NCBI GenBank assembly: GCA_001189155.1
Contig: LFCP01000004.1
Coordinates: 68,782-132,781, forward strand
DNA length: 64,000 nt
DNA from: Parcubacteria bacterium C7867-006
GTDB lineage: Bacteria; Patescibacteriota; Minisyncoccia; Phycocordibacterales; DATDWN01
Reading direction: 5' to 3'
Shown here: piece after piece, positions 3,330 through 59,690 of the stretch
How the letters are laid out: every line of letters starts with the position of its first letter
Position numbering within the stretch: position 1 is the first letter of the stretch
The notes under the pieces: model-generated
What the model was told of the DNA's origin: nothing
The model's input: only the letters and a program-made list of their open reading frames with translations
Databases searched by the model: none
Program-made: the position numbers and the translations under genes

Positions 3330-3530
3330 CTATGTCCGAATCGCACCGCGAAGTCGAGGTGTATGCATATGGCACCTGATCCACACCCAGAAGGTAGAGA
3401 TAGAGCAATATGCGAAACACACAACAACGGCACAAAGAACATAGAAGACGATGAGGCAGATCACTCCGATGACAGTAGCTACCACTGTGGCAGCTATCAC
3501 CAAGAAAATGAGCAAGGCCTCCACGTACAT
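3330..3530 (-). CDS. small GC-rich transmembrane protein (66 aa; MYVEALLIFLVIAATVVATVIGVICLIVFYVLCAVVVCFAYCSISTFWVWIRCHMHTPRLRGAIRT)
   Basis: ATG overlaps stop of upstream ORF (TGATG coupling) with GGAG 3 nt upstream; about 35-residue hydrophobic stretch; terminator hairpin downstream. Confidence 0.35.
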   Translation of the reverse strand: MYVEALLIFLVIAATVVATVIGVICLIVFYVLCAVVVCFAYCSISTFWVWIRCHMHTPRLRGAIRT

Positions 3531-3739
3531 CAGCTCCAGTACGGAGAGTGGTCGAGCTTCGGAACCGTCCGTGGTCGAGCTTCCTCGTACCATCGTTCGG
3601 TGTGCCGGAGCACGACTTCCTTGGAAAGCGATGGCGAGTTCCACACCTCGGAGAAAGAACGCCGAGGTGCTTCGCTAACGATCACCACTCCATGAACGAC
3701 TGAAACCAGCCCGAAAAGCGCCTTAACGAGAGTTCCCAT
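3530..3739 (-). CDS. small GC-rich protein (69 aa; MGTLVKALFGLVSVVHGVVIVSEAPRRSF...) first gene of a 2-gene mini-operon
   Basis: strong SD GGGGAGGaagcggATG; N-terminal hydrophobic segment; TTGACA -35-like box at 3794..3799 just after uvrB stop. Confidence 0.4.
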   Translation of the reverse strand: MGTLVKALFGLVSVVHGVVIVSEAPRRSFSEVWNSPSLSKEVVLRHTERWYEEARPRTVPKLDHSPYWS

Positions 3740-3802: not shown

Positions 3803-5908
3803 CTATCTCAGCAAGTCTTTGTTTCTAGGATTTACAATTTTTTTAGGTTTTTGTGACTCGAGAATTTTTTGTAGCTCAAGTATTTCATCTCTTAATATAG
3901 CGGCAGTTTCAAAATCTAATATTTTTACTGCACCATCCATTTGTTTTTCTTTCTGTCGTATTAGTTTAGCCGGATCTTTTTCTAACATTTTTTTATCAAC
4001 TTCCAACAAAGCAGAAACTGTTTTTTGATGTTCGTTTCGAAGCTGGTCAGTAATATCTTGAATTTTTTTGATAATTGTTTTTGGAGTTATGCCATGTTTT
4101 TTATTGTACTCCATCTGTAGTGTTCTACGTCTAGCAGTTTCATCTATAGCGTACTTCATAGATTTTGTAACTGTATCTGCATAAAGAATCACACGACCAT
4201 CTATGTTTCTAGCTGCACGACCAATAATCTGTATGAGTGAAGTCTCACTTCGGAGAAAACCTTCTTTATCTGCATCCAAAATTCCAATCAGTTTAACTTC
4301 TGGCAAATCCAAACCTTCTCGCAATAGATTTACACCAACAAGAACATCAAAAGTACCCCTTCGAAGATTTGTTAATATTTCAATTCTTTCTATTGTTTTG
4401 ATATCGCTATGAAGATACTCTGCCTTGATTCCCTTTTCTTTCAAATATTCACTCAGATCCTCTGCCATTTTTTTAGTTAGAGTTGTTGCGATTACCCTAC
4501 CACCATCTTTTATAGACTTCTCAGCCTCCTTTATAAAATCTTTCACCTGACCAGGATAACTCCCCTTTTCAACAATAGGTTTTACGTCTACAACTGGATC
4601 AATCAATCCTGTTGGTCGTATAACTTGTTCAACAACTTGTTCTGAATGTTCTTTTTCGTATGTACTAGGTGTAGCTGATGTGTAAATAACCTGTCCAACC
4701 CTCTCCTCAAACTCGTTGAACTTTAGAGGTCTATTGTCTTTTGCACTTGGAAGTCTGAAACCGAAATCAACTAGACTCTGTTTTCTGGAAGCATCTCCAC
4801 CGTACATCGCGCCGATTTGAGGAACTGACACATGAGACTCATCTATAACAGTCAAAAAATCTGGTGAGCCATCTTTATTGTGCGGAAAGTATGCAAGTAA
4901 TGTATCAGGAGCCTCTCCAGGTTTTTTACCAGAAAAATGTCGCGAGTAATTTTCTATTCCATTGCAATACCCCATCTCACGGATAAGTGCTAGATCATAT
5001 GTTGTGCGTCTTTTTAATCTCTCCGCTTCAAGATTTTTTCCTTCTTTCTCTAACTCCTTTAAACGTTTAGCCAATTCTGCCTTAATTGATTTAAATGCTC
5101 TCTCATTCTGCTCGTTAGTTGAAATAAAATGTTTTGCTGGAAAAAGGAAAAAAGCATCTACTTCTTTTATTATTCCACGAGTTATAGCATCAATAACTAA
5201 AATTTGTTTTATTTTACTTTCATCTATTTCAATTCGATAAATAACTTTTTCTGAAATGGGCATTATCTCTAACATATTACCTATAGCTCTGAACATTCCC
5301 GGTTTTAAGTCTGCAGTAGTTCTTTCAAAATGCACATCAATCAAGTTTCGAATAAAATCTGCTCTAGAAATTTTTTCTCCCTTACTGATTTTTACATTTA
5401 CTTTTTCATACTCAACAGGAGAACCTAAACCATAGATACAGGAAACTGACGCGACAATGATTACATCTTTTCTAGTTAAAAGAGCTTGTGTTGAAGCATG
5501 GCGAAGTCTATCTATCTCCTCATTTATCATTGCCTCTTTCTCTATGTATGTATCAGAAACTGGCATATAGGCTTCTGGCTGATAATAGTCATAATAAGAA
5601 ACAAAGTAATGCACGGCATTGTTTGGAAAAAATTCTCTATATTCCTGAGCTAGTTGTGCTGCGAGAGTTTTATTGTGAGCTATAACCAAAGTCGGCTTTT
5701 GAACCTCCTGTATAACGTTTGCAATAGTGTAAGTTTTTCCAGAACCAGTCACACCCAAAAGAGTCTGATGTTTCAGACCCTTTTTTACACCGTCGACCAA
5801 ACCCTTTATAGCTTTTGGTTGATCCCCAGCTGGAGGATATTCTCTTTTAATCTCAAATTTCATTTTCACACTATACAATAAATTTAGATATAGAAAAAGG
5901 CGACACAT
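3803..5908 (-). CDS. uvrB: excinuclease ABC subunit B UvrB (likely true start 5863, MKFEIKREYPPAGDQP)
   Basis: GVTGSGKT Walker A, helicase motifs, UvrB/UvrC interaction C-terminus; ORF-track N-terminal extension runs into a terminator hairpin loop. Confidence 0.95.
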   Translation of the reverse strand: MCRLFLYLNLLYSVKMKFEIKREYPPAGDQPKAIKGLVDGVKKGLKHQTLLGVTGSGKTYTIANVIQEVQKPTLVIAHNKTLAAQLAQEYREFFPNNAVHYFVSYYDYYQPEAYMPVSDTYIEKEAMINEEIDRLRHASTQALLTRKDVIIVASVSCIYGLGSPVEYEKVNVKISKGEKISRADFIRNLIDVHFERTTADLKPGMFRAIGNMLEIMPISEKVIYRIEIDESKIKQILVIDAITRGIIKEVDAFFLFPAKHFISTNEQNERAFKSIKAELAKRLKELEKEGKNLEAERLKRRTTYDLALIREMGYCNGIENYSRHFSGKKPGEAPDTLLAYFPHNKDGSPDFLTVIDESHVSVPQIGAMYGGDASRKQSLVDFGFRLPSAKDNRPLKFNEFEERVGQVIYTSATPSTYEKEHSEQVVEQVIRPTGLIDPVVDVKPIVEKGSYPGQVKDFIKEAEKSIKDGGRVIATTLTKKMAEDLSEYLKEKGIKAEYLHSDIKTIERIEILTNLRRGTFDVLVGVNLLREGLDLPEVKLIGILDADKEGFLRSETSLIQIIGRAARNIDGRVILYADTVTKSMKYAIDETARRRTLQMEYNKKHGITPKTIIKKIQDITDQLRNEHQKTVSALLEVDKKMLEKDPAKLIRQKEKQMDGAVKILDFETAAILRDEILELQKILESQKPKKIVNPRNKDLLR

Positions 5909-5916
5909 TGTCGCCT
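5898..5916 (-). terminator. perfect 8-bp hairpin AGGCGACA-cat-TGTCGCCT flanked by A5/T5 runs (bidirectional)
   Basis: seen directly; sits between GC-rich island 5920..6310 and uvrB start. Confidence 0.5.
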
Positions 5917-5919
5917 GGT

Positions 5920-6310
5920 GGTGGAACTACGGTTGGACTAGAAGACCCAACATATGGAGATCGTCGGGGGAAGAGTCCGACGACAGACCCATGGCAAGGC
6001 CTGGAGCGCGCTCCAAGGTTAGGTGGGGGTGGTTGCCCAAGACACCCAGTCCAACCGTGTTCCATTAGCAACACTACTACTTATTAAAAATTTGTCAAAT
6101 TGCTTTATATTAAATATAAAAAACGGCGATCCAAATGGACCAGCCGTGTGACGAGTGCGGTGGACAGTTGTCCACATAAAGAGCGTATTACAGTCTGCCG
6201 AAGCAAACTACACAGGTGGGTAGAATATCCTTCCCACGGTTATAGAGGCTTTATTCATCCTCTACCCAGACCGGGGTTATTACCTAAGTACATCACCCAC
6301 CTGAACTAAT
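5920..6310. ncRNA. candidate structured RNA(s) in GC-rich island, class unassigned
   Basis: about 55% GC island in AT-rich intergenic; long-range 11-bp helix 5929..5939/6048..6058, palindrome GGAGCGCGCTCC 6003..6014, 9-bp helix 6213..6221/6295..6303; only Pro/Arg-rich junk ORFs; no tRNA T-loop or RNase P P4 motifs found. Confidence 0.25.
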
Positions 6311-10927: not shown

Positions 10928-11533
10928 TTATGCTTTTGTTTTATTTTTTCTTGAAACCCAGTACTCATAAACTGAAGGCAGAAGAGAAACAAAAATAATA
11001 AGAAATACCATATAGTGAAGATACTTCTCCACACCAGGCATAACTCTACCTAAATAAAAACCGATAGACGTAACGCCTATAGTCCAAAGAAATCCACCAA
11101 AAACAGAATCTATTGTGAATTTTTTAAACGACATATTTACTGCTCCTGCTAGAGTTGGCGCAAATGATCTGACAACAGGAACAAACCTTCCAATTATAAG
11201 CGTTTTATCTCCATATTTATTATAAAAATCCTGTGTGTAGTCCAAATGTTTCTTTTTGAACCAATATTTATCATTGCTTTTTAAAATAAAATTTCGAAGT
11301 CTCTCTCCCATAAAATAACTGAAGTTGTAACCCAAAATACTTGCGATAAAAAGAGTTGGTAGAAGTATTGCCATACTAAAGTAACCCTGTGATGCAAGAA
11401 AACCTGTAGTAAACAGAAGTGAATCACCTGGTAAATAAAAAGTAAGCGGAAAAGATTCAAGAAAAATAATTATAAAAAGAATAAAATATCCGTAATATCC
11501 AACGTCTTTTATGAGACCGATCAAATGTTCCAT
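10928..11533 (-). CDS. DedA/SNARE-associated family membrane protein
   Basis: FLESFPLTFYLPGDSLLFTTGFL DedA signature, multiple TM. Confidence 0.8.
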   Translation of the reverse strand: MEHLIGLIKDVGYYGYFILFIIIFLESFPLTFYLPGDSLLFTTGFLASQGYFSMAILLPTLFIASILGYNFSYFMGERLRNFILKSNDKYWFKKKHLDYTQDFYNKYGDKTLIIGRFVPVVRSFAPTLAGAVNMSFKKFTIDSVFGGFLWTIGVTSIGFYLGRVMPGVEKYLHYMVFLIIFVSLLPSVYEYWVSRKNKTKA

Positions 11534-11645
11534 GGGAGCTATTGTAACATAATTTTATGTAAAGAAATCAACACAAAGAGAAACTCCACACGAATGTAGG
11601 ACGTGGGAGTCCCTCATTTACGTGTGGAGTATGGCCAGCCGAGAG

Positions 11646-11786
11646 CTAACCACGAGTGAGGAAAGCGAGAAGAAGACCAGCGAGGAGAACCGCGCCAATC
11701 CAGAGCCAGTAGTTCGGCTTTTTCGTAGCCGAGTTCTGGATCTCACCACTTTCCGACGAATCGAGTCTGCCGAGCGTAACAGCCAT
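11646..11786 (-). CDS. small GC-rich tail-anchored membrane protein (46 aa; MAVTLGRLDSSESGEIQNSATKKPNYWLWIGAVLLAGLLLAFLTRG)
   Basis: strong SD AGGAGGGTG-ATG; C-terminal TM helix; GC-rich island 11590..11810; followed by 9-bp hairpin CTCCACACG...CGTGTGGAG plus TTT; not in ORF track (<60 aa). Confidence 0.35.
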   Translation of the reverse strand: MAVTLGRLDSSESGEIQNSATKKPNYWLWIGAVLLAGLLLAFLTRG

Positions 11787-11825
11787 CAGCACCCTCCTAG
11801 TATTAATGTTATCTAGTTAGAAAAT

Positions 11826-13070
11826 TTAGTCAATAAAGGTAAAAGCCTTTCCTTTTTTACCAGCTCTTCCTGTTCTTCCTATACGATGGACATAATCCTC
11901 ATACGTAGCTGGAATATCAAAGTTAATAACATGAGAAACTCCGGAAATGTCTAAACCTCTAGCAGCGACATCAGTTGCAACCAGCACCTGAGCCTTATCA
12001 TCTTTGAAAGTTTTTAATGCTCTTTGTCTAGCCGACTGGTTTTTGTCACCGTGAATAGATTCTGCTTTGAAACCTCTACCTTGTAGTAATGTTGTTAGCT
12101 TTTCAACTCCATGTTTTGTTCTACCAAAAATCAAAACTTTACTGAAATCTGGTTGAATTAACATTGAATGTAGAACATCTAGTTTATTTTCACCTCGATT
12201 TACTCGCACAACATCCTGATCAACATTTTTTGATGTATCTTGTGTCTTTACTGAAATAGAAACTGGATTTTTTAAGAAATCCTTTATAAGCATTTCAATC
12301 TCTCTAGATAATGTAGCTGAGAAAAACAAAGTGTGTCTGTCTTTAGGCATCATAGCCATCATAAACTTCATATCGTTTATAAATCCCATATCAAGCATTC
12401 TGTCAGCCTCATCCAAAACAACTGTTTTGAAAAATGATAGATTTAAAACTTTTCGTTCAATCAAATCTTTAAGTCTGCCTGGCGTACCAATAACAAACTC
12501 ATTTCTATATCGAAGCTGTCTTATTTGTGAACCGATAGGTGCACCTCCAACACATGAGACAGAATACAGCCCCATACCTTTTATAAAACCTTTTAGTTCA
12601 TCCTCTATTTGAAGTGCTAGCTCTCTTGTTGGACACATTATAAGAATATTTTCTTTTGGATTTGAAAGTACTTTGTGAATAAGAGGAATAAGAAAAGCAG
12701 CAGTCTTTCCTGTTCCTGTGTTTGCGATACCAACAATGTCTTCGCCTTTTAATATATGAGGAATAGCCCGATCCTGAATCGGTGTTGGATCAACATAACC
12801 TTTTTCAATAATGTTTGCTTTCAATCTTTCATCTATCAAAAAATCAGCAAACTTATGCTCAGGCACAAACTGCTCCACAGTCTCTGTTATAACTGCTTTA
12901 TTAACGAATTTAGATGGATGAATACTAGTTGAGACCCCTCGGCCTCTACCACCTCCACTTCTGTTACCACCACGAACTGGAAATCTTCCTCGACTTCCAC
13001 TTGAGCGACCTGCAAACGCAGGCTTTTTAAAAGTCCGCGTAAGCGCACCTTTCTGTATTTTTGATTGCAT
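11826..13070 (-). CDS. DEAD-box ATP-dependent RNA helicase with N-terminal RGG-rich tail
   Basis: Q-motif PTPIQ, GTGKTAAF, DEAD, SAT, HRIGRTGRAG. Confidence 0.9.
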   Translation of the reverse strand: MQSKIQKGALTRTFKKPAFAGRSSGSRGRFPVRGGNRSGGGRGRGVSTSIHPSKFVNKAVITETVEQFVPEHKFADFLIDERLKANIIEKGYVDPTPIQDRAIPHILKGEDIVGIANTGTGKTAAFLIPLIHKVLSNPKENILIMCPTRELALQIEDELKGFIKGMGLYSVSCVGGAPIGSQIRQLRYRNEFVIGTPGRLKDLIERKVLNLSFFKTVVLDEADRMLDMGFINDMKFMMAMMPKDRHTLFFSATLSREIEMLIKDFLKNPVSISVKTQDTSKNVDQDVVRVNRGENKLDVLHSMLIQPDFSKVLIFGRTKHGVEKLTTLLQGRGFKAESIHGDKNQSARQRALKTFKDDKAQVLVATDVAARGLDISGVSHVINFDIPATYEDYVHRIGRTGRAGKKGKAFTFID

Positions 13071-13217: not shown

Positions 13218-13296
13218 TAGAAATAGATTCGTATGTAGTTGGTCGCCTCGATGACGAGGTGAGACTACAAACGAAGCTCTCTGTCAGGAGTTGTAG

Positions 13297-14184
13297 ATGC
13301 GTATCGCACGCTCGCTCGCTCTCGTTCTGTTGGTGTTTCTGTCGGCAACCAACGCTTTCGCCCAGAAGGGTGAATACGCTGTGCCGAAGGACGCCCAGCT
13401 CGAACAATATCCGGTACTCGAGGCCAACAAGCCTCTGACCGTGGTGCAGATCGCAGACATGCACTTGCATCCGATCCGGTTGGACAAACCGACCGTGGTT
13501 CAGAACCACTTCCGTGGACTACACGGAAAGGAAGGTCGATTCGTCGTCGAGACGTTGCCGAAAGGCACACTCGTTCTCGTCGACGAAAACAACAACCTCC
13601 GTTACAAGGAGGACTGCGGGAACCGGTTGGTGGAGTTCGACAATCAAGCACTCGTTCGGGGAATCATTTCCTCTGACAAGTTGTCTGAACCTGTTGTTGT
13701 CCACGATGGTGACACGCTGATTGTGTCGCCCGACAGTACGAAAGTCATCCCGGCAAAACCGATGATGAGTCTGTGGGATACAGTAGCTTCTACCGTTCGT
13801 AGAGGTGTTGAGTGGCTTACGCCATTTGCACATTTCATCGGATGGCTGCTACTTGCGATTCTCCTCTTCGGTATCATCTGGGCCGTCATCATGGCTGGCC
13901 TCGAGGATAGGGATAGGAGACGATACAATCGCAACCAGATGGTTGGTGATCAAACACACCCATCGCACCCGGCCGCGACTGTCCCGCCTCCTGCCCCAAA
14001 TGCCCCCGCAGCGACGACACCGGCAGCAGCTCCGGCCAATACTGAAAGGGCGTTTATCACCCACTCTGCTGGTAGCGGCTCAAATCCGCACCTTCTGCGG
14101 TGGGGAGGCTTGGACTTCCACAGCCTCGAGGTGGCACCGGACGGGGTTCACTCCCTGCGGTACCATCCCAGGACCAGTAAGTAG
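13297..14184 (+). CDS. GC-rich secreted, membrane-anchored protein of unknown function (signal peptide, ectodomain, one TM, Pro/Ala-rich tail)
   Basis: 295-aa ORF at about 57% GC; signal peptide MRIARSLALVLLVFLSATNAFAQ; TM LLLAILLFGIIWAVIMAGL; own promoter, SD and terminator. Confidence 0.55.
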   Translation: MRIARSLALVLLVFLSATNAFAQKGEYAVPKDAQLEQYPVLEANKPLTVVQIADMHLHPIRLDKPTVVQNHFRGLHGKEGRFVVETLPKGTLVLVDENNNLRYKEDCGNRLVEFDNQALVRGIISSDKLSEPVVVHDGDTLIVSPDSTKVIPAKPMMSLWDTVASTVRRGVEWLTPFAHFIGWLLLAILLFGIIWAVIMAGLEDRDRRRYNRNQMVGDQTHPSHPAATVPPPAPNAPAATTPAAAPANTERAFITHSAGSGSNPHLLRWGGLDFHSLEVAPDGVHSLRYHPRTSK

Positions 14185-14235
14185 ACACGAGTTCTTCCGC
14201 CACCTGACGGCATCAGGTAGAGCATTCCACTCGAC

Positions 14236-14264
14236 ACGGCAGACCAACAAGGTCTGCCGTTTTT
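14236..14264. terminator. perfect 10-bp hairpin ACGGCAGACC-aacaa-GGTCTGCCGT plus TTTT, bidirectional
   Basis: seen directly between convergent genes. Confidence 0.55.
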
Positions 14265-14276
14265 AGTACTTAAACT

Positions 14277-14786
14277 TTACCTAAAAAGTGCCCAGGATTT
14301 TTTTGCATGATCAAGATAGTAATCTAGACCAATCATACCCGCTGTTTTGTGAGCTAACATAATAAAGATAGCTAAAACCAATAACTGAGGATTTGTACTT
14401 ACTGTACCAGCAAAGAGATAGTTTAGATTCATAAACGCTCCAAATAAAGCGGCTAGGAACGTTAATGCACCGAAGATAAGGCCTAGACCTACAAGAATCT
14501 CTCCGTAGGTTATTGCATGTGACCAAATGTTCGCATATGGAAGAACTGCATGTTGCAAAAACCAAGCATACCAACCTGATACATCCGGGTGAATACCAGT
14601 TGTTTTTGCTAGCGCCCCATTTGCAAAACCAGTTATCGCAACACCAGCCTTCTCCCCAATCCAAACTGGATTAATTAATTTTTCATAACCAGCATAAAGC
14701 CATTCCCAACCAACATAAACACGAACAATTAGCCAAACCCATGAAAGTTTTGGACTAGTAAAGATAGAACTAAAAAAAGTTTTCAT
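14277..14786 (-). CDS. DoxX/DoxD-like family membrane protein
   Basis: 4 TM, DoxX-like RVYVGWEWLYAGYEKL N-terminus. Confidence 0.5.
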   Translation of the reverse strand: MKTFFSSIFTSPKLSWVWLIVRVYVGWEWLYAGYEKLINPVWIGEKAGVAITGFANGALAKTTGIHPDVSGWYAWFLQHAVLPYANIWSHAITYGEILVGLGLIFGALTFLAALFGAFMNLNYLFAGTVSTNPQLLVLAIFIMLAHKTAGMIGLDYYLDHAKKSWALFR

Positions 14787-23779: not shown

Positions 23780-24126
23780 AATTTTTATAAATTTAATAAT
23801 TTTTATAACGCAAAAACCGGCCTAAAAAGACCGGTTATGCTATTAGCTCCCCACAGCCCAAGCGTCCAAATACAGACTGTGGTTCATCGCCTTCTTTAGT
23901 AACAACTAAACCCTAAATATCTAACTAAATCGTATTCTACACTAACTTAAAATATCGTCAATGGTTGAGCAAATTCACTAAATTTTATTAAAATTGATTA
24001 AAAAATTAAATTATTATTATAAAAATATCATTTTTTTTAATTTTTTTAAAAAATAATGAAAATTTAGAAATTATAAAACTTCACAACGATGTGAAGTTTT
24101 ATAAAACAAAAACTAGAAAACTTTTG

Positions 24127-26919: not shown

Positions 26920-27516
26920 CTAGAACACGTCGCCCGAGGTCCCCTCCGAAGAGTTGACCCAATTGTCGCTGATACCGTGGTACACCCACCCCCAGAATTC
27001 GTATGAGTAGGTGTTGACCGTGAAGTACGTAGTGAGCCAGGAAGCGTAACCGGGACAGTTGCCATTGATGTCGCAGGCGTAGTCCACGATGCCGATGTTA
27101 CCCTTGGTCTTCCAGGCCGGCGCCGGGTTGAGAACTCCGTCGATGATGAGCACGTACCCGCCCTCGAACGTTCCGTCTTCCTCACCGGTAAGGGGTCCGT
27201 TGTTGCCGGGGCTGGTCTGCCCAGCCTGGGCGTCGAACTGGCCGGAGTTCCGAACCACCGCGCAGTACTTGCCGTCGGGCTGAGCCCACACCTGGATCGT
27301 ACGGTTGAGATCGTCGAAGGCCCAGTTGTTGCCGGCGAGACCGGAATCCACGTCATGGATGACCTTACCCGTAACGTTGATGACCGGGGGGCCAACACGC
27401 TGGCAGGTGCCAGCGTTGACCTGGGTACCCCAGTTGAGGTTCTCGCGAGGATCAGCATTCGCATGGGAGACGACCCCCAGGACACTGGCCAGGACAGCGC
27501 ACCAAATAAACTTCAT
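26920..27516 (-). CDS. GC-rich secreted Trp/Gly/Asn-rich protein of unknown function (198 aa)
   Basis: about 58% GC; signal peptide MKFIWCAVLASVLGVVSHANA; AAGGAG SD; own terminator; overlapping alternative-frame ORF 26835..27485 is Arg/Pro-rich junk. Confidence 0.5.
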   Translation of the reverse strand: MKFIWCAVLASVLGVVSHANADPRENLNWGTQVNAGTCQRVGPPVINVTGKVIHDVDSGLAGNNWAFDDLNRTIQVWAQPDGKYCAVVRNSGQFDAQAGQTSPGNNGPLTGEEDGTFEGGYVLIIDGVLNPAPAWKTKGNIGIVDYACDINGNCPGYASWLTTYFTVNTYSYEFWGWVYHGISDNWVNSSEGTSGDVF

Positions 27517-34046: not shown

Positions 34047-34310
34047 ATGAATGGGACCACGTCTGAATTGTACGGAGACTCCCAGTTGATCTACCTCGGC
34101 GAAAATCTCGTGAGGATGTTCAGGGGCGGCCGACACGTAGAGATTGGAGAGAGGAGAATTCTCGCGACCAGCCACAGACAAGTTGAGGTCGTCAAGATCA
34201 AGAAGCCTCAGAACCCATATGACGAGCATGAACCAATCGTCGAGGTGGAGTGCACTCTACCTAGTGGCGACAAGATTAGAAGTCTCATCAGATTTGATGA
34301 GTTGAGGTGA
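34047..34310 (+). CDS. GC-rich small soluble protein (87 aa) of unknown function
   Basis: about 55% GC island; strong SD GAGGAGG 6 nt before ATG at 34047; followed by hairpin AGGGGGT...ACCCCTCT plus T-run. Confidence 0.4.
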   Translation: MNGTTSELYGDSQLIYLGENLVRMFRGGRHVEIGERRILATSHRQVEVVKIKKPQNPYDEHEPIVEVECTLPSGDKIRSLIRFDELR

Positions 34311-50847: not shown

Positions 50848-50921
50848 TGGGAGATCGTCTAACGGTAGGACAGAGGCCTTTGAAGCCTTTAATTGGGGTT
50901 CGATTCCCTGTCTCCCAGCCA
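50848..50921 (+). tRNA. tRNA-Gln (anticodon UUG), CCA encoded
   Basis: cloverleaf folded by hand: acceptor U1-A72...7 bp, D-loop GG, AC loop cUUUGaa, T-loop TTCGATT, discriminator G, CCA. Confidence 0.85.
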
Positions 50922-59223: not shown

Positions 59224-59552
59224 AATATTTTATTGCTAACTAATAAGAGAGAAGGGCTTTTAAAGAAAAAGCCACTTCTTATAACTCTGCAGTAAACAAA
59301 GTTATCCGAATGAGTGACATTTTAGGTAGACTATCTAGGTTTGTATTCAAATTATAGAACGATAGGGGCCAAAAAGTCGATATGACTTATCCACAGATAT
59401 TTAATCATGTCAAGAGTGTAAAGAATGTAAATCGCTTCGCAGGGATTGAGTGATGTGATAGGGTGGAAAAATAGCACCCAAAAGTGCTATGATAAGAGCA
59501 CAATTTAATAAGTATAAGTAGCCTAAACCTAGTTTTCACTAGGCATGGTGAA

Positions 59553-59690
59553 AAGTCCTATCAAGCATAAAGAACCCATCATGGGGTCGCTTGATAGGCC
59601 ATATCGGGAAACCGGTATGAGAGACTTCGGTCTCTACCCGTGGTGGGCTTTTTGTGTATCTGCCACGGCATTAGCAAGTCCTATCAAGCA
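59553..59690 (+). promoter_or_regulatory. structured leader: 15-nt direct repeat AAGTCCTATCAAGCA (59553 and 59676) plus inverted partner GCTTGATAGG (59589) and hairpin GAGAGAC-ttcg-GTCTCT followed by T5
   Basis: seen directly; second repeat covers the RBS of the HNH gene; middle arm can pair with either flanking copy. Confidence 0.3.

Follow-up and report, generated by a model that had tools for sequence, protein, structure and literature searches.

A small Shine-Dalgarno-led gene in a GC-rich island of a Parcubacteria genome probably encodes a tail-anchored membrane peptide

Results and Discussion

The stretch of DNA analyzed here (64,000 nucleotides of contig LFCP01000004.1 from Parcubacteria bacterium C7867-006, hereafter the window) carries on its minus strand, between a DEAD-box helicase gene and the DedA/VTT-domain gene dedA, an open reading frame (ORF) of 46 codons lying within a GC-rich island. 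Based on comparisons of sequences, we consider it probable (roughly 0.6) that this ORF is an independently expressed gene for a 46-residue tail-anchored membrane protein, which would represent a new family limited to one small clade of Paceibacteria (Parcubacteria). The initial annotation had proposed such a stand-alone gene, and four lines of evidence speak for a genuine, separate small gene: homologous cassettes are present in related loci, purifying selection is detected in the annotated frame, the architecture of the peptide is conserved, and three homologues have been called independently. The ORF was found as originally quoted, with its start and stop codons confirmed, and the same holds for its strong Shine-Dalgarno (SD) sequence, AGGAGGG at 11798-11792. 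The island, also described correctly as GC-rich, has 51.6% GC over 11564-11811 (56% in 11600-11799), compared with 35.7% for the whole window, in which several short islands reach 47-59% GC. The parts of the cassette and its two flanking genes are as follows.

11828..11833, minus strand: -35-like box TTGACT, from the promoter scan; its final base doubles as the first of the helicase stop codon
11806..11811, minus strand: -10-like box TAACAT, from the promoter scan; 16 nt past the -35 box and 7 nt before the SD
11792..11798, minus strand: SD AGGAGGG, from the sequence; GGAGG lies 6 nt before the ATG
11646..11786, minus strand: 46-codon ORF plus stop, MAVTLGRLDSSESGEIQNSATKKPNYWLWIGAVLLAGLLLAFLTRG; ATG at 11786-11784, stop codon TAG at 11648-11646
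11655..11711, minus strand: predicted C-terminal transmembrane helix, codons 26-44, YWLWIGAVLLAGLLLAFLT, from AlphaFold2 and hydropathy; KKPN before it and only RG after it
11583..11630, minus strand: two-tier hairpin CTCCACACG...CGTGTGGAG (11629-11584) plus the A-T pair 11630/11583, followed by TTTCTCTTTGTGTT
11630-11620 paired with 11593-11583, minus strand: outer stem of the hairpin, from comparative data
11613-11609 (GGGAC) paired with 11602-11598 (GTCCT), minus strand: inner stem of the hairpin, from comparative data
11570..11582, minus strand: U-rich tract TTCTCTTTGTGTT, continuing from the T at 11583, from the sequence; broken by C and G
11826-13070, minus strand: DEAD-box helicase gene, upstream flank of the island
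10928-11533, minus strand: DedA/VTT-domain gene (dedA), downstream flank of the island

From this promoter, of the sigma-70 type, transcription is predicted to start near 11799-11800, leaving a leader of about 13 nt with little in it besides the SD. The stop codon is separated from the hairpin by 15 nt when the stem is extended by the A-T pair, and by 16 nt when counted to its CTCC core. The hairpin pattern occurs once in the window, against 0.00 occurrences expected from shuffles, and its folding energy is -24 kcal/mol. Its outer stem lies where it had first been described, whereas the nested GGG-ACT-CCC mini-hairpin that had been placed inside it is not the conserved inner element, this being the GGGAC/GTCCT stem.

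Conservation of the cassette in related loci

One genome per species was scanned with the helicase, resulting in 80 Patescibacteria loci, and more contigs were added through relatives of the adjacent DedA protein (loci are designated here by L numbers). The order doxX, helicase, dedA is kept in about 15 of the 80 loci, with very variable spacers. A homologous cassette was identified in nine loci, namely the window, L002, L003/L082, L004, L085/L086, L091, L092, L093 and L094, and these nine copies represent about eight independent ones. Conservation across related genomes, which had been put forward as a check on the ORF, therefore extends to eight other loci. All carriers, the window among them, have the cassette in the spacer between helicase and dedA, on the same strand and upstream of a leaderless dedA. 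A scan of metagenomes for the hairpin pattern provided one extra copy (L082), identical in type to L003; no copy was found when viral sequences were scanned in the same way.

The regulatory parts are shared as well. TTGACG and TTGACT boxes stand at the equivalent position in L002 and L004, where the promoters read TTGACG-17-TAGAAT and TTGACT-17-TAGTAT, respectively, and the spacing of 7 nt between the -10 box (TAGAAT, TAGTAT or TAACAT) and the SD seen in the window recurs in L002, L003, L004, L085, L091, L092 and L094. Every cassette copy has AGGGAGG or AGGAGGG as its SD, with the start codon 5-7 nt later. The GC-rich ORF spans 43-52 codons in six variants and 75-78 codons in three long forms. 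L091 and L094 reach 75-78 codons through an in-frame N-terminal extension, and in both the core peptide is preceded by another SD; the insertion of L091, 78 nt long, keeps the frame. L093 has a single 77-codon ORF. The long forms, at L091 2159-2395, L094 1717-1944 and L093 2174-2407, have a common N-terminal extension (...YMRNxxNRH...), which in L091 and L094 holds a conserved 9-bp hairpin, ACTGGCAAC...GTTGCCAGT. Moreover, at L093 2501-3514, DedA/VTT is fused to a NUDIX hydrolase domain in a protein of 337 aa.

In L002, L003, L004, L085 and L092, the helicase gene has a terminator hairpin of its own ahead of the cassette promoter, which makes the cassette a transcription unit by itself in these loci. 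This terminator is missing from the window, L091 and L094, in which the promoter abuts the helicase stop codon. The cassette is absent from L005, L087-L090 and all the more distant relatives examined. As the carriers fall in one clade of the DedA tree, alongside the non-carriers L005, L087 and L088, a single origin followed by losses is indicated. The cassette-less L088/L089 (spacer 660-897), L090 (1-150) and L087 (1-83) retain a spacer of 236 nt, in which a helicase terminator is accompanied by a stretch of moderate GC-richness that may be a decayed remnant of the cassette.

The alleles form at least three classes (W, N and S) in addition to the long forms, and these are discordant with the DedA tree. 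L091 and L094, for instance, have 91% DedA identity yet different core peptides, and L092 (W-type) groups nearest to L085 (N-type) on the DedA tree. The flanks of the cassette are conserved around a hypervariable center.

Coding potential and selection

Judged from codon-level comparisons between these copies, the ORF is protein-coding and under purifying selection. Against L092, its closest allele (MATTLGRLESS... at the start of the window peptide, MAVTLGRLDSS... in L092), the proportion of synonymous differences (pS) is 0.78, which is saturated, and that of non-synonymous differences (pN) is 0.44 (Fisher p=4e-4), a signal confined to the annotated frame. L002 and L085, compared over 50 codons without gaps, gave a ratio of non-synonymous to synonymous divergence (dN/dS) of 0.35 (Fisher p=0.004), as opposed to 0.80 in a shifted frame, and L002 and L091 gave 0.11 over codons 2-35 (p=1e-5); no such signal of selection was observed in shifted frames. 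Among L002, L003 and L082, two changes are synonymous and one is non-synonymous.

In addition, the composition of the window ORF follows the order GC3 > GC1 > GC2 (GC content by codon position), with only 7% A at the third position, and matches that of the larger genes in GC-rich islands. When the body of the window ORF was subjected to 20,000 dinucleotide shuffles, no shuffle yielded an ORF of suitable length that combined a polar head with a hydrophobic helix at the C-terminus. All variants have a polar N-terminus rich in Ser, Thr and Glu, basic residues, a P-x-x-[FYW]-W motif and then the helix, with at most a few residues after it. By BLASTP, the window peptide shows 38% identity to that of L092 over 39 residues, and it scores 11.2 bits against a hidden Markov model of the other seven variants, a value matched by 27 of 5000 architecture-preserving shuffles. 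The peptides of L085, L002/L003 and L092 have been called hypothetical proteins by other pipelines, with identical start codons. On the source contig, both the 46-aa and the 48-aa versions are absent from the public gene calls.

The predicted peptide

AlphaFold2 places a helix at residues 26-44 of the 46, with a predicted local distance difference test score (pLDDT) of about 90, behind an unstructured N-terminus, and the Kyte-Doolittle hydropathy peaks at 2.55 over residues 30-44. Both predictions thus agree with a helix of the transmembrane type and with the tail-anchored peptide suggested at the outset. Like all variants, the window peptide has one hydrophobic helix within its last 25 residues or so and no N-terminal signal peptide. 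K22 and K23 stand ahead of the helix and a single R behind it; as every variant has basic residues on the N-side of its helix, the N-terminus is predicted to be cytoplasmic. In the N-type alleles, the polar N-terminus is better conserved than the helix (dN/dS of 0.11 over codons 2-35, versus 0.35 overall).

Searches against Pfam, NCBIfam, PADLOC and PHROGs returned nothing above the curated cut-off for a family. The best scores below it were 13 bits for PBP_N with the window peptide (cut-off 30) and 20.3 bits for DUF1206 with that of L085 (cut-off 26.2); PADLOC returned nothing, and PHROGs only two weak matches (E 0.07 and 0.15). A word-based search of 5.8 billion proteins found no relative of the window peptide, and an exhaustive phmmer search of 1.84 billion representative proteins returned only three eukaryotic repeat proteins, which are spurious. 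The predicted tryptic peptides are as follows.

Window allele: LDSSESGEIQNSATK
N-type: SSVSSAQTEQSQSR

The terminal hairpin and RNA-level tests

Across the nine copies, the hairpin is supported by covariation: 96.5% of the cells are paired, 6 of 16 pairs are compensatory, none of 500 shuffles was as good, and slid controls reached 27-54%. The consensus is CTCCRYRYG...CGTGYGGAG followed by TTTC, with a compensatory A-U in the window where others have G-C; L093 has an inner stem of other sequence and the same structure. TTTCC or TTTCT follows the stem in all copies, and the distance from the stop codon varies between 0 and 27 nt. A simple terminator scan called the apical part of the hairpin in L004. 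From these features, we infer that the hairpin is an intrinsic terminator which would also insulate the dedA promoter. As the window has no other terminator between the helicase stop codon and the hairpin, the latter probably ends both the helicase and the ORF transcripts. Nevertheless, it is not merely a helicase terminator, because five relatives have a separate one upstream of the cassette promoter; the possibility, raised with the initial annotation, that the hairpin serves the helicase only does not hold in view of L002, L003, L004, L085 and L092. The claim that the ORF has its own terminator is supported in that a covarying stem follows the stop codon, and needs amending in that, in the window, this stem is probably common to the helicase transcript too. 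A dispersed repeat, such as a miniature inverted-repeat transposable element, was rejected, since the hairpin is unique in the window and matching repeats were not found; an integron attC-like site was rejected by inspection, with neither an integrase nor an R/L-box pattern.

In AT-rich genomes, a GC-rich island is frequently an RNA gene, and the locus was also analyzed at this level. Rfam gave no match at the gathering threshold, the best permissive match being STnc180 with 21.7 bits versus 50. The minus-strand transcript folds at -101 kcal/mol (z=-5.7; z=-2.8 for the opposite strand), and that of L004 at z=-6.2. In eight variants, however, the terminal hairpin (-21 to -31 kcal/mol) accounts for the larger part of this extra stability, and leader and ORF alone have z values of only -0.7 to -3.2. 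The SD is mostly paired in seven of the eight predicted transcripts, an occlusion no greater than in shuffles of the ORF body, and a helix closing the 5' and 3' ends is predicted in the window and L004, not in L002. Since the excess is mostly that of the hairpin, the SD pairing equals that of shuffles and the closing helix is inconsistent, no evolved RNA fold is supported beyond the hairpin. A closing helix of the hok/AapA1 type was rejected on the last two of these grounds, and a selected RNA fold of the ORF body as the source of the GC-richness is not supported, given the low z values without the hairpin. A scan of the cassette and its immediate surroundings in the window, L002 and L004 revealed no antisense promoter, although weak promoters could escape such a scan.

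GC-richness and Shine-Dalgarno usage

GC content at third codon positions (GC3) is 0.57-0.73 in the cassettes, compared with 0.21-0.32 in the flanking core genes; in the window, the values are 0.57 for the ORF and 0.23 for the core. Divergence is similar in both (pS 0.47-0.78 in the cassettes, 0.48-0.75 in the flanks). Having diverged to much the same degree as its flanks, the cassette maintains its GC-richness, which is therefore not that of a recent import awaiting amelioration.

The SD is equally atypical of this genome. A 5-mer SD precedes none of the 54 long core ORFs of the window, and SD use amounts to 2-9% in all sampled relatives (80+ loci), regardless of GC content. The duplex energy with the canonical anti-SD has a median of +0.4 kcal/mol in 424 core genes, versus -6.9 to -12.5 kcal/mol in six GC-island genes of the window and -10.7 kcal/mol for the ORF. 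This contrast is partly compositional (p=0.12 for island upstream regions versus island interiors), and the strict 5-mer count in island genes of other loci is weak (2/17 versus 7/426). In many core genes, a TAnnAT box precedes the ATG by 4-9 nt, suggesting that their mRNAs are leaderless. In the case of dedA, TGTTACAAT (window 11531-11549, minus strand) is followed by 7 nt and then the ATG, an arrangement conserved in L002-L005. Import of the SD from GC-richer Paceibacteria was considered and is not supported, as those relatives are without SDs too and are therefore not obvious donors; a phage or plasmid origin was rejected, since neither the cassette nor two larger genes of the islands gave a match at the DNA or protein level.

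Three further GC-rich mini-ORFs of the window have very strong SDs (-10.7 to -12.5 kcal/mol): 81-209 on the plus strand (42 aa, helical at the N-terminus; the gene has a TATAAT box and a hairpin resembling a terminator), 3530-3739 on the minus strand (69 aa, with a hydrophobic N-terminus) and 34047-34310 on the plus strand (87 aa, soluble-looking). The ORF had been described as being of the same style as other GC-rich mini-genes; this is true of the design (GC-rich, with a strong SD, a short leader and a terminator) and does not extend to sequence or topology. Moreover, a gene at 26920-27516 (minus strand), in a 58% GC island, has GC3 of 0.79 and an AAGGAG SD and encodes a secreted protein of 198 aa, which matched no Pfam or NCBIfam family and no plasmid.

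The spacer between doxX and the helicase gene is a variable slot (window 13228-14279, L002 2885-4001, L003 858-2702, L005 1480-2757, L010 2313-3860). The window and L005 encode in this slot a protein of 295 aa (55% identity between the two) that combines a signal peptide with a membrane anchor; no Pfam domain was recognized in it, and a search of 5.8 billion proteins yielded only 13 relatives. Secreted proteins unrelated to it, from GC-rich genes, fill the slot in L002, L003 and L010; the slots of L004 and L006 are empty.

Although Patescibacteria are documented to exchange genes horizontally (PMC12455944), such exchange accounts neither for the SDs nor for the lasting GC-richness. A tentative suggestion, which we regard as possible and no better, is that accessory genes which are GC-rich and SD-led, and whose products are mostly secreted or membrane proteins, form a distinct expression class in an AT-rich genome with a core without SDs that often looks leaderless, that alleles are swapped between lineages, and that the peptide marks a balanced-polymorphism locus of a host-dependent ultra-small bacterium. 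If so, GC3 kept through saturating divergence and allele swapping would point to a separate translation-initiation regime for diversifying envelope genes, or to hot spots of biased gene conversion.

Proposed function and alternative explanations

In the proposed mechanism, an mRNA of about 215-230 nt would end at the hairpin acting as an intrinsic terminator. The hairpin would also insulate the leaderless dedA promoter just downstream and, in the window, probably stop read-through from the helicase gene. Given that the helix lies at the extreme C-terminus, the peptide would be inserted after translation ends, by a route of the signal recognition particle (SRP)/YidC type, as for other small membrane proteins; post-translational SRP insertion of such proteins is described in PMC7549839. 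The N-terminus would then lie in the cytoplasm, with almost nothing exposed outside, and the working part would be the disordered N-terminus of about 25 residues, rich in Ser, Thr and Glu, held at the membrane. The C-terminal position of the helix, the basic residues on its N-side and the conserved polar N-terminus suggest partner binding at the membrane rather than a pore, and the N-terminus most likely binds or modulates a membrane-proximal partner, in the manner of regulatory small membrane proteins. The gene would be an accessory, polymorphic locus with one origin in the clade, lost in some lineages, and with allele classes off the species tree.

Several points weigh against this interpretation. 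The tests rest on few sequences, as there are only nine copies, and without L092 as a bridge, the similarity of the window peptide to the N-type alleles is not significant (p values of 0.04-0.16). The topology depends on the positive-inside rule, with a difference of one or two charges, and the regulatory function is drawn from architecture only. As for the terminator, the U-tract contains interrupting C and G residues, and the window hairpin went uncalled in the simple terminator scan; moreover, the CTCC/GGAG bases of the outer stem are invariant, which exceeds the needs of a plain terminator and hints at a second, additional constraint on the hairpin.

Among the other explanations, a polymorphic protective or recognition peptide, immunity- or exclusion-like, whose alleles are kept by frequency-dependent selection from phages, hosts or competitors, is rather unlikely. 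It would account for allele classes and long forms that depart from the DedA tree (L091/L094 and L092/L085), for the conserved flanks around a hypervariable center, which favor allele swapping, for the presence/absence polymorphism of the locus and for the neighboring slot with unrelated, variable secreted or membrane protein genes. However, no toxin, bacteriocin or phage gene adjoins the cassette, PADLOC, PHROGs and phage and plasmid collections gave no match, the predicted topology leaves almost nothing outside the cell, and pairwise dN/dS is below 1 wherever measured. Also unlikely, on present evidence decidedly so, is a membrane-damaging peptide similar to type I toxins, held in check by mRNA structure and/or antisense RNA as a selfish or stress-response module. 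Size, single helix, intergenic site, patchy presence and a GC-rich, stable mRNA fit loosely, and so does the SD being mostly paired in most transcripts; in addition, in txpA/ratA-type systems of B. subtilis, a convergent antisense RNA targets the 3' region, and the conserved 3' hairpin could be such a target. Nevertheless, the scan for antisense promoters was negative, a leader of about 13 nt has no room for the typical long structured 5' untranslated region (UTR), SD occlusion does not exceed that of shuffles, the mRNA minus its terminal hairpin is not exceptionally structured, the N-type peptides conserve their polar N-terminus most and not the helix, the locus is single-copy with no repeat in the window, and no toxin family of PADLOC, Pfam or NCBIfam was matched.

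The remaining explanations deny the ORF a function as a protein gene or subordinate it to its neighbors. That the hairpin serves only as a helicase terminator, with the ORF as a meaningless remnant of decaying foreign GC-rich DNA, is very improbable: the window does lack another terminator before the hairpin, the codon usage is foreign (GC3 of 0.57 versus 0.23) and close relatives such as L005 do without the element, but five relatives have a separate helicase terminator and then the cassette promoter, the ORF is under purifying selection, and the cassette is intact and GC-rich while its flanks have reached synonymous saturation. A structured non-coding RNA with an incidental ORF is barely credible and is largely refuted by the frame-specific dN/dS. 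The folding energy of the minus strand, the z value of L004 and the covariation in the terminal hairpin would suit it; on the other side, the best Rfam score is far below gathering, the stability excess is mostly that of the terminal hairpin, the SD and ATG at the 5' end are conserved, and the interior cannot be aligned as RNA and yet keeps an open frame, a helix-coding segment and a synonymous excess. Scarcely any weight can be given to a leader peptide or attenuator, in which translation of the ORF would decide whether the hairpin forms and hence whether transcription reads through into dedA. In its favor, dedA is in every case the next gene downstream of the ORF and hairpin, with the same orientation, and the stop codon is 0-27 nt from the hairpin; yet the dedA promoter (TGTTACAAT, 7 nt, ATG) is conserved with or without the cassette, dedA is arranged identically in relatives lacking the cassette, the copies conserve no alternative pairing of the anti-terminator kind, and selection acts on the sequence of the peptide, which is long and directed to the membrane. 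A riboswitch for dedA was likewise rejected, given the hypervariable interior and the promoter of dedA itself.

Comparison with known systems

A small tail-anchored membrane protein is already known as a kind; the family, the behavior of its alleles and the class of SD-led, GC-rich genes are new. Known regulatory small membrane proteins include the tail-anchored Prli42 of Listeria and YohP, AcrZ, MgrB and MgtS of E. coli. The class has been reviewed (PMC12648545). The predicted peptide resembles it in having fewer than 60 residues, a single helix and no cleavable signal peptide, in being missed by annotation, in having its own predicted promoter and terminator, and in probably being inserted post-translationally; in Prli42, too, a C-terminal helix tethers a short N-terminus that lies in the cytoplasm. 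Unlike these five proteins, it shows no sequence relationship to them, is found in one Paceibacteria clade only, is strongly polymorphic and is encoded by a GC-rich, SD-led gene in an AT-rich genome whose core genes lack SDs.

Type I toxins such as Hok, Fst, TisB and AapA1, or TxpA and BsrG of B. subtilis, are similar in being small hydrophobic single-helix peptides (fewer than about 60 aa, here 46) from intergenic, variably present genes with a stable GC-rich mRNA and a strong 3' hairpin. The cassette differs from them in that no antisense promoter was found in the scan, the leader has only about 13 nt, no SD-occluding fold has evolved, the locus is single-copy, and the helix stands at the C-terminal end after a polar, better conserved segment of 25-30 residues. 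The hairpin, in turn, has the GC-rich stem-loop 0-27 nt past the stop codon, the T-rich run and the compensatory changes of intrinsic terminators, from which it departs in its two tiers, with a 27-nt interior rather than a loop of 3-8 nt, its broken T-run and its invariant outer stem.

Horizontally acquired genes are more commonly AT-richer than their host, whereas the cassette is GC-richer. It shares with the genomic islands of Patescibacteria (PMC12455944) its accessory nature, atypical composition, patchy distribution and position beside a variable slot, but is a single-gene cassette of 0.25 kb without mobility genes, which has co-diverged with its flanks and kept its GC-richness.

The gene would add an unannotated small-protein family to the bacteria of the Candidate Phyla Radiation, in which uncharacterized genes are numerous and annotation systematically misses small membrane proteins, and illustrates that the coding status of a 46-codon ORF is provable from a few metagenomic orthologues. 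Moreover, the SD here marks special GC-rich accessory genes rather than being the default gene signal, which affects gene calling and raises questions on translation initiation and on the upkeep of compositional islands. If the allelic diversity reflects interaction with hosts or phages, the locus would offer a compact handle on the biology of uncultured episymbionts.

Source and other features of the window

The C7867-006 genome bin, of 652 kb and 36% GC, originates from Hanford groundwater (PMC4508563), and the window is contained in the Joint Genome Institute (JGI) metagenome contig 3300001199|J055_10000067 (121.7 kb). As RNA elements of known type, the window has a LOOT RNA at 59520-59635 on the plus strand (88 bits), a c-di-GMP-II riboswitch at 23820-23903 on the minus strand (63 bits) and tRNA-Gln at 50848-50921 on the plus strand. 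Furthermore, the GC-rich uvrB-tgt spacer at 5889-6278 (minus strand) comprises two units with promoter and terminator and without a convincing ORF or Rfam match. The unit at 5890-6062 has a fold with z=-5.7, including a long closing helix and a classic terminator, and that at 6118-6300 has z=-2.9; both are candidates for unannotated small RNAs.

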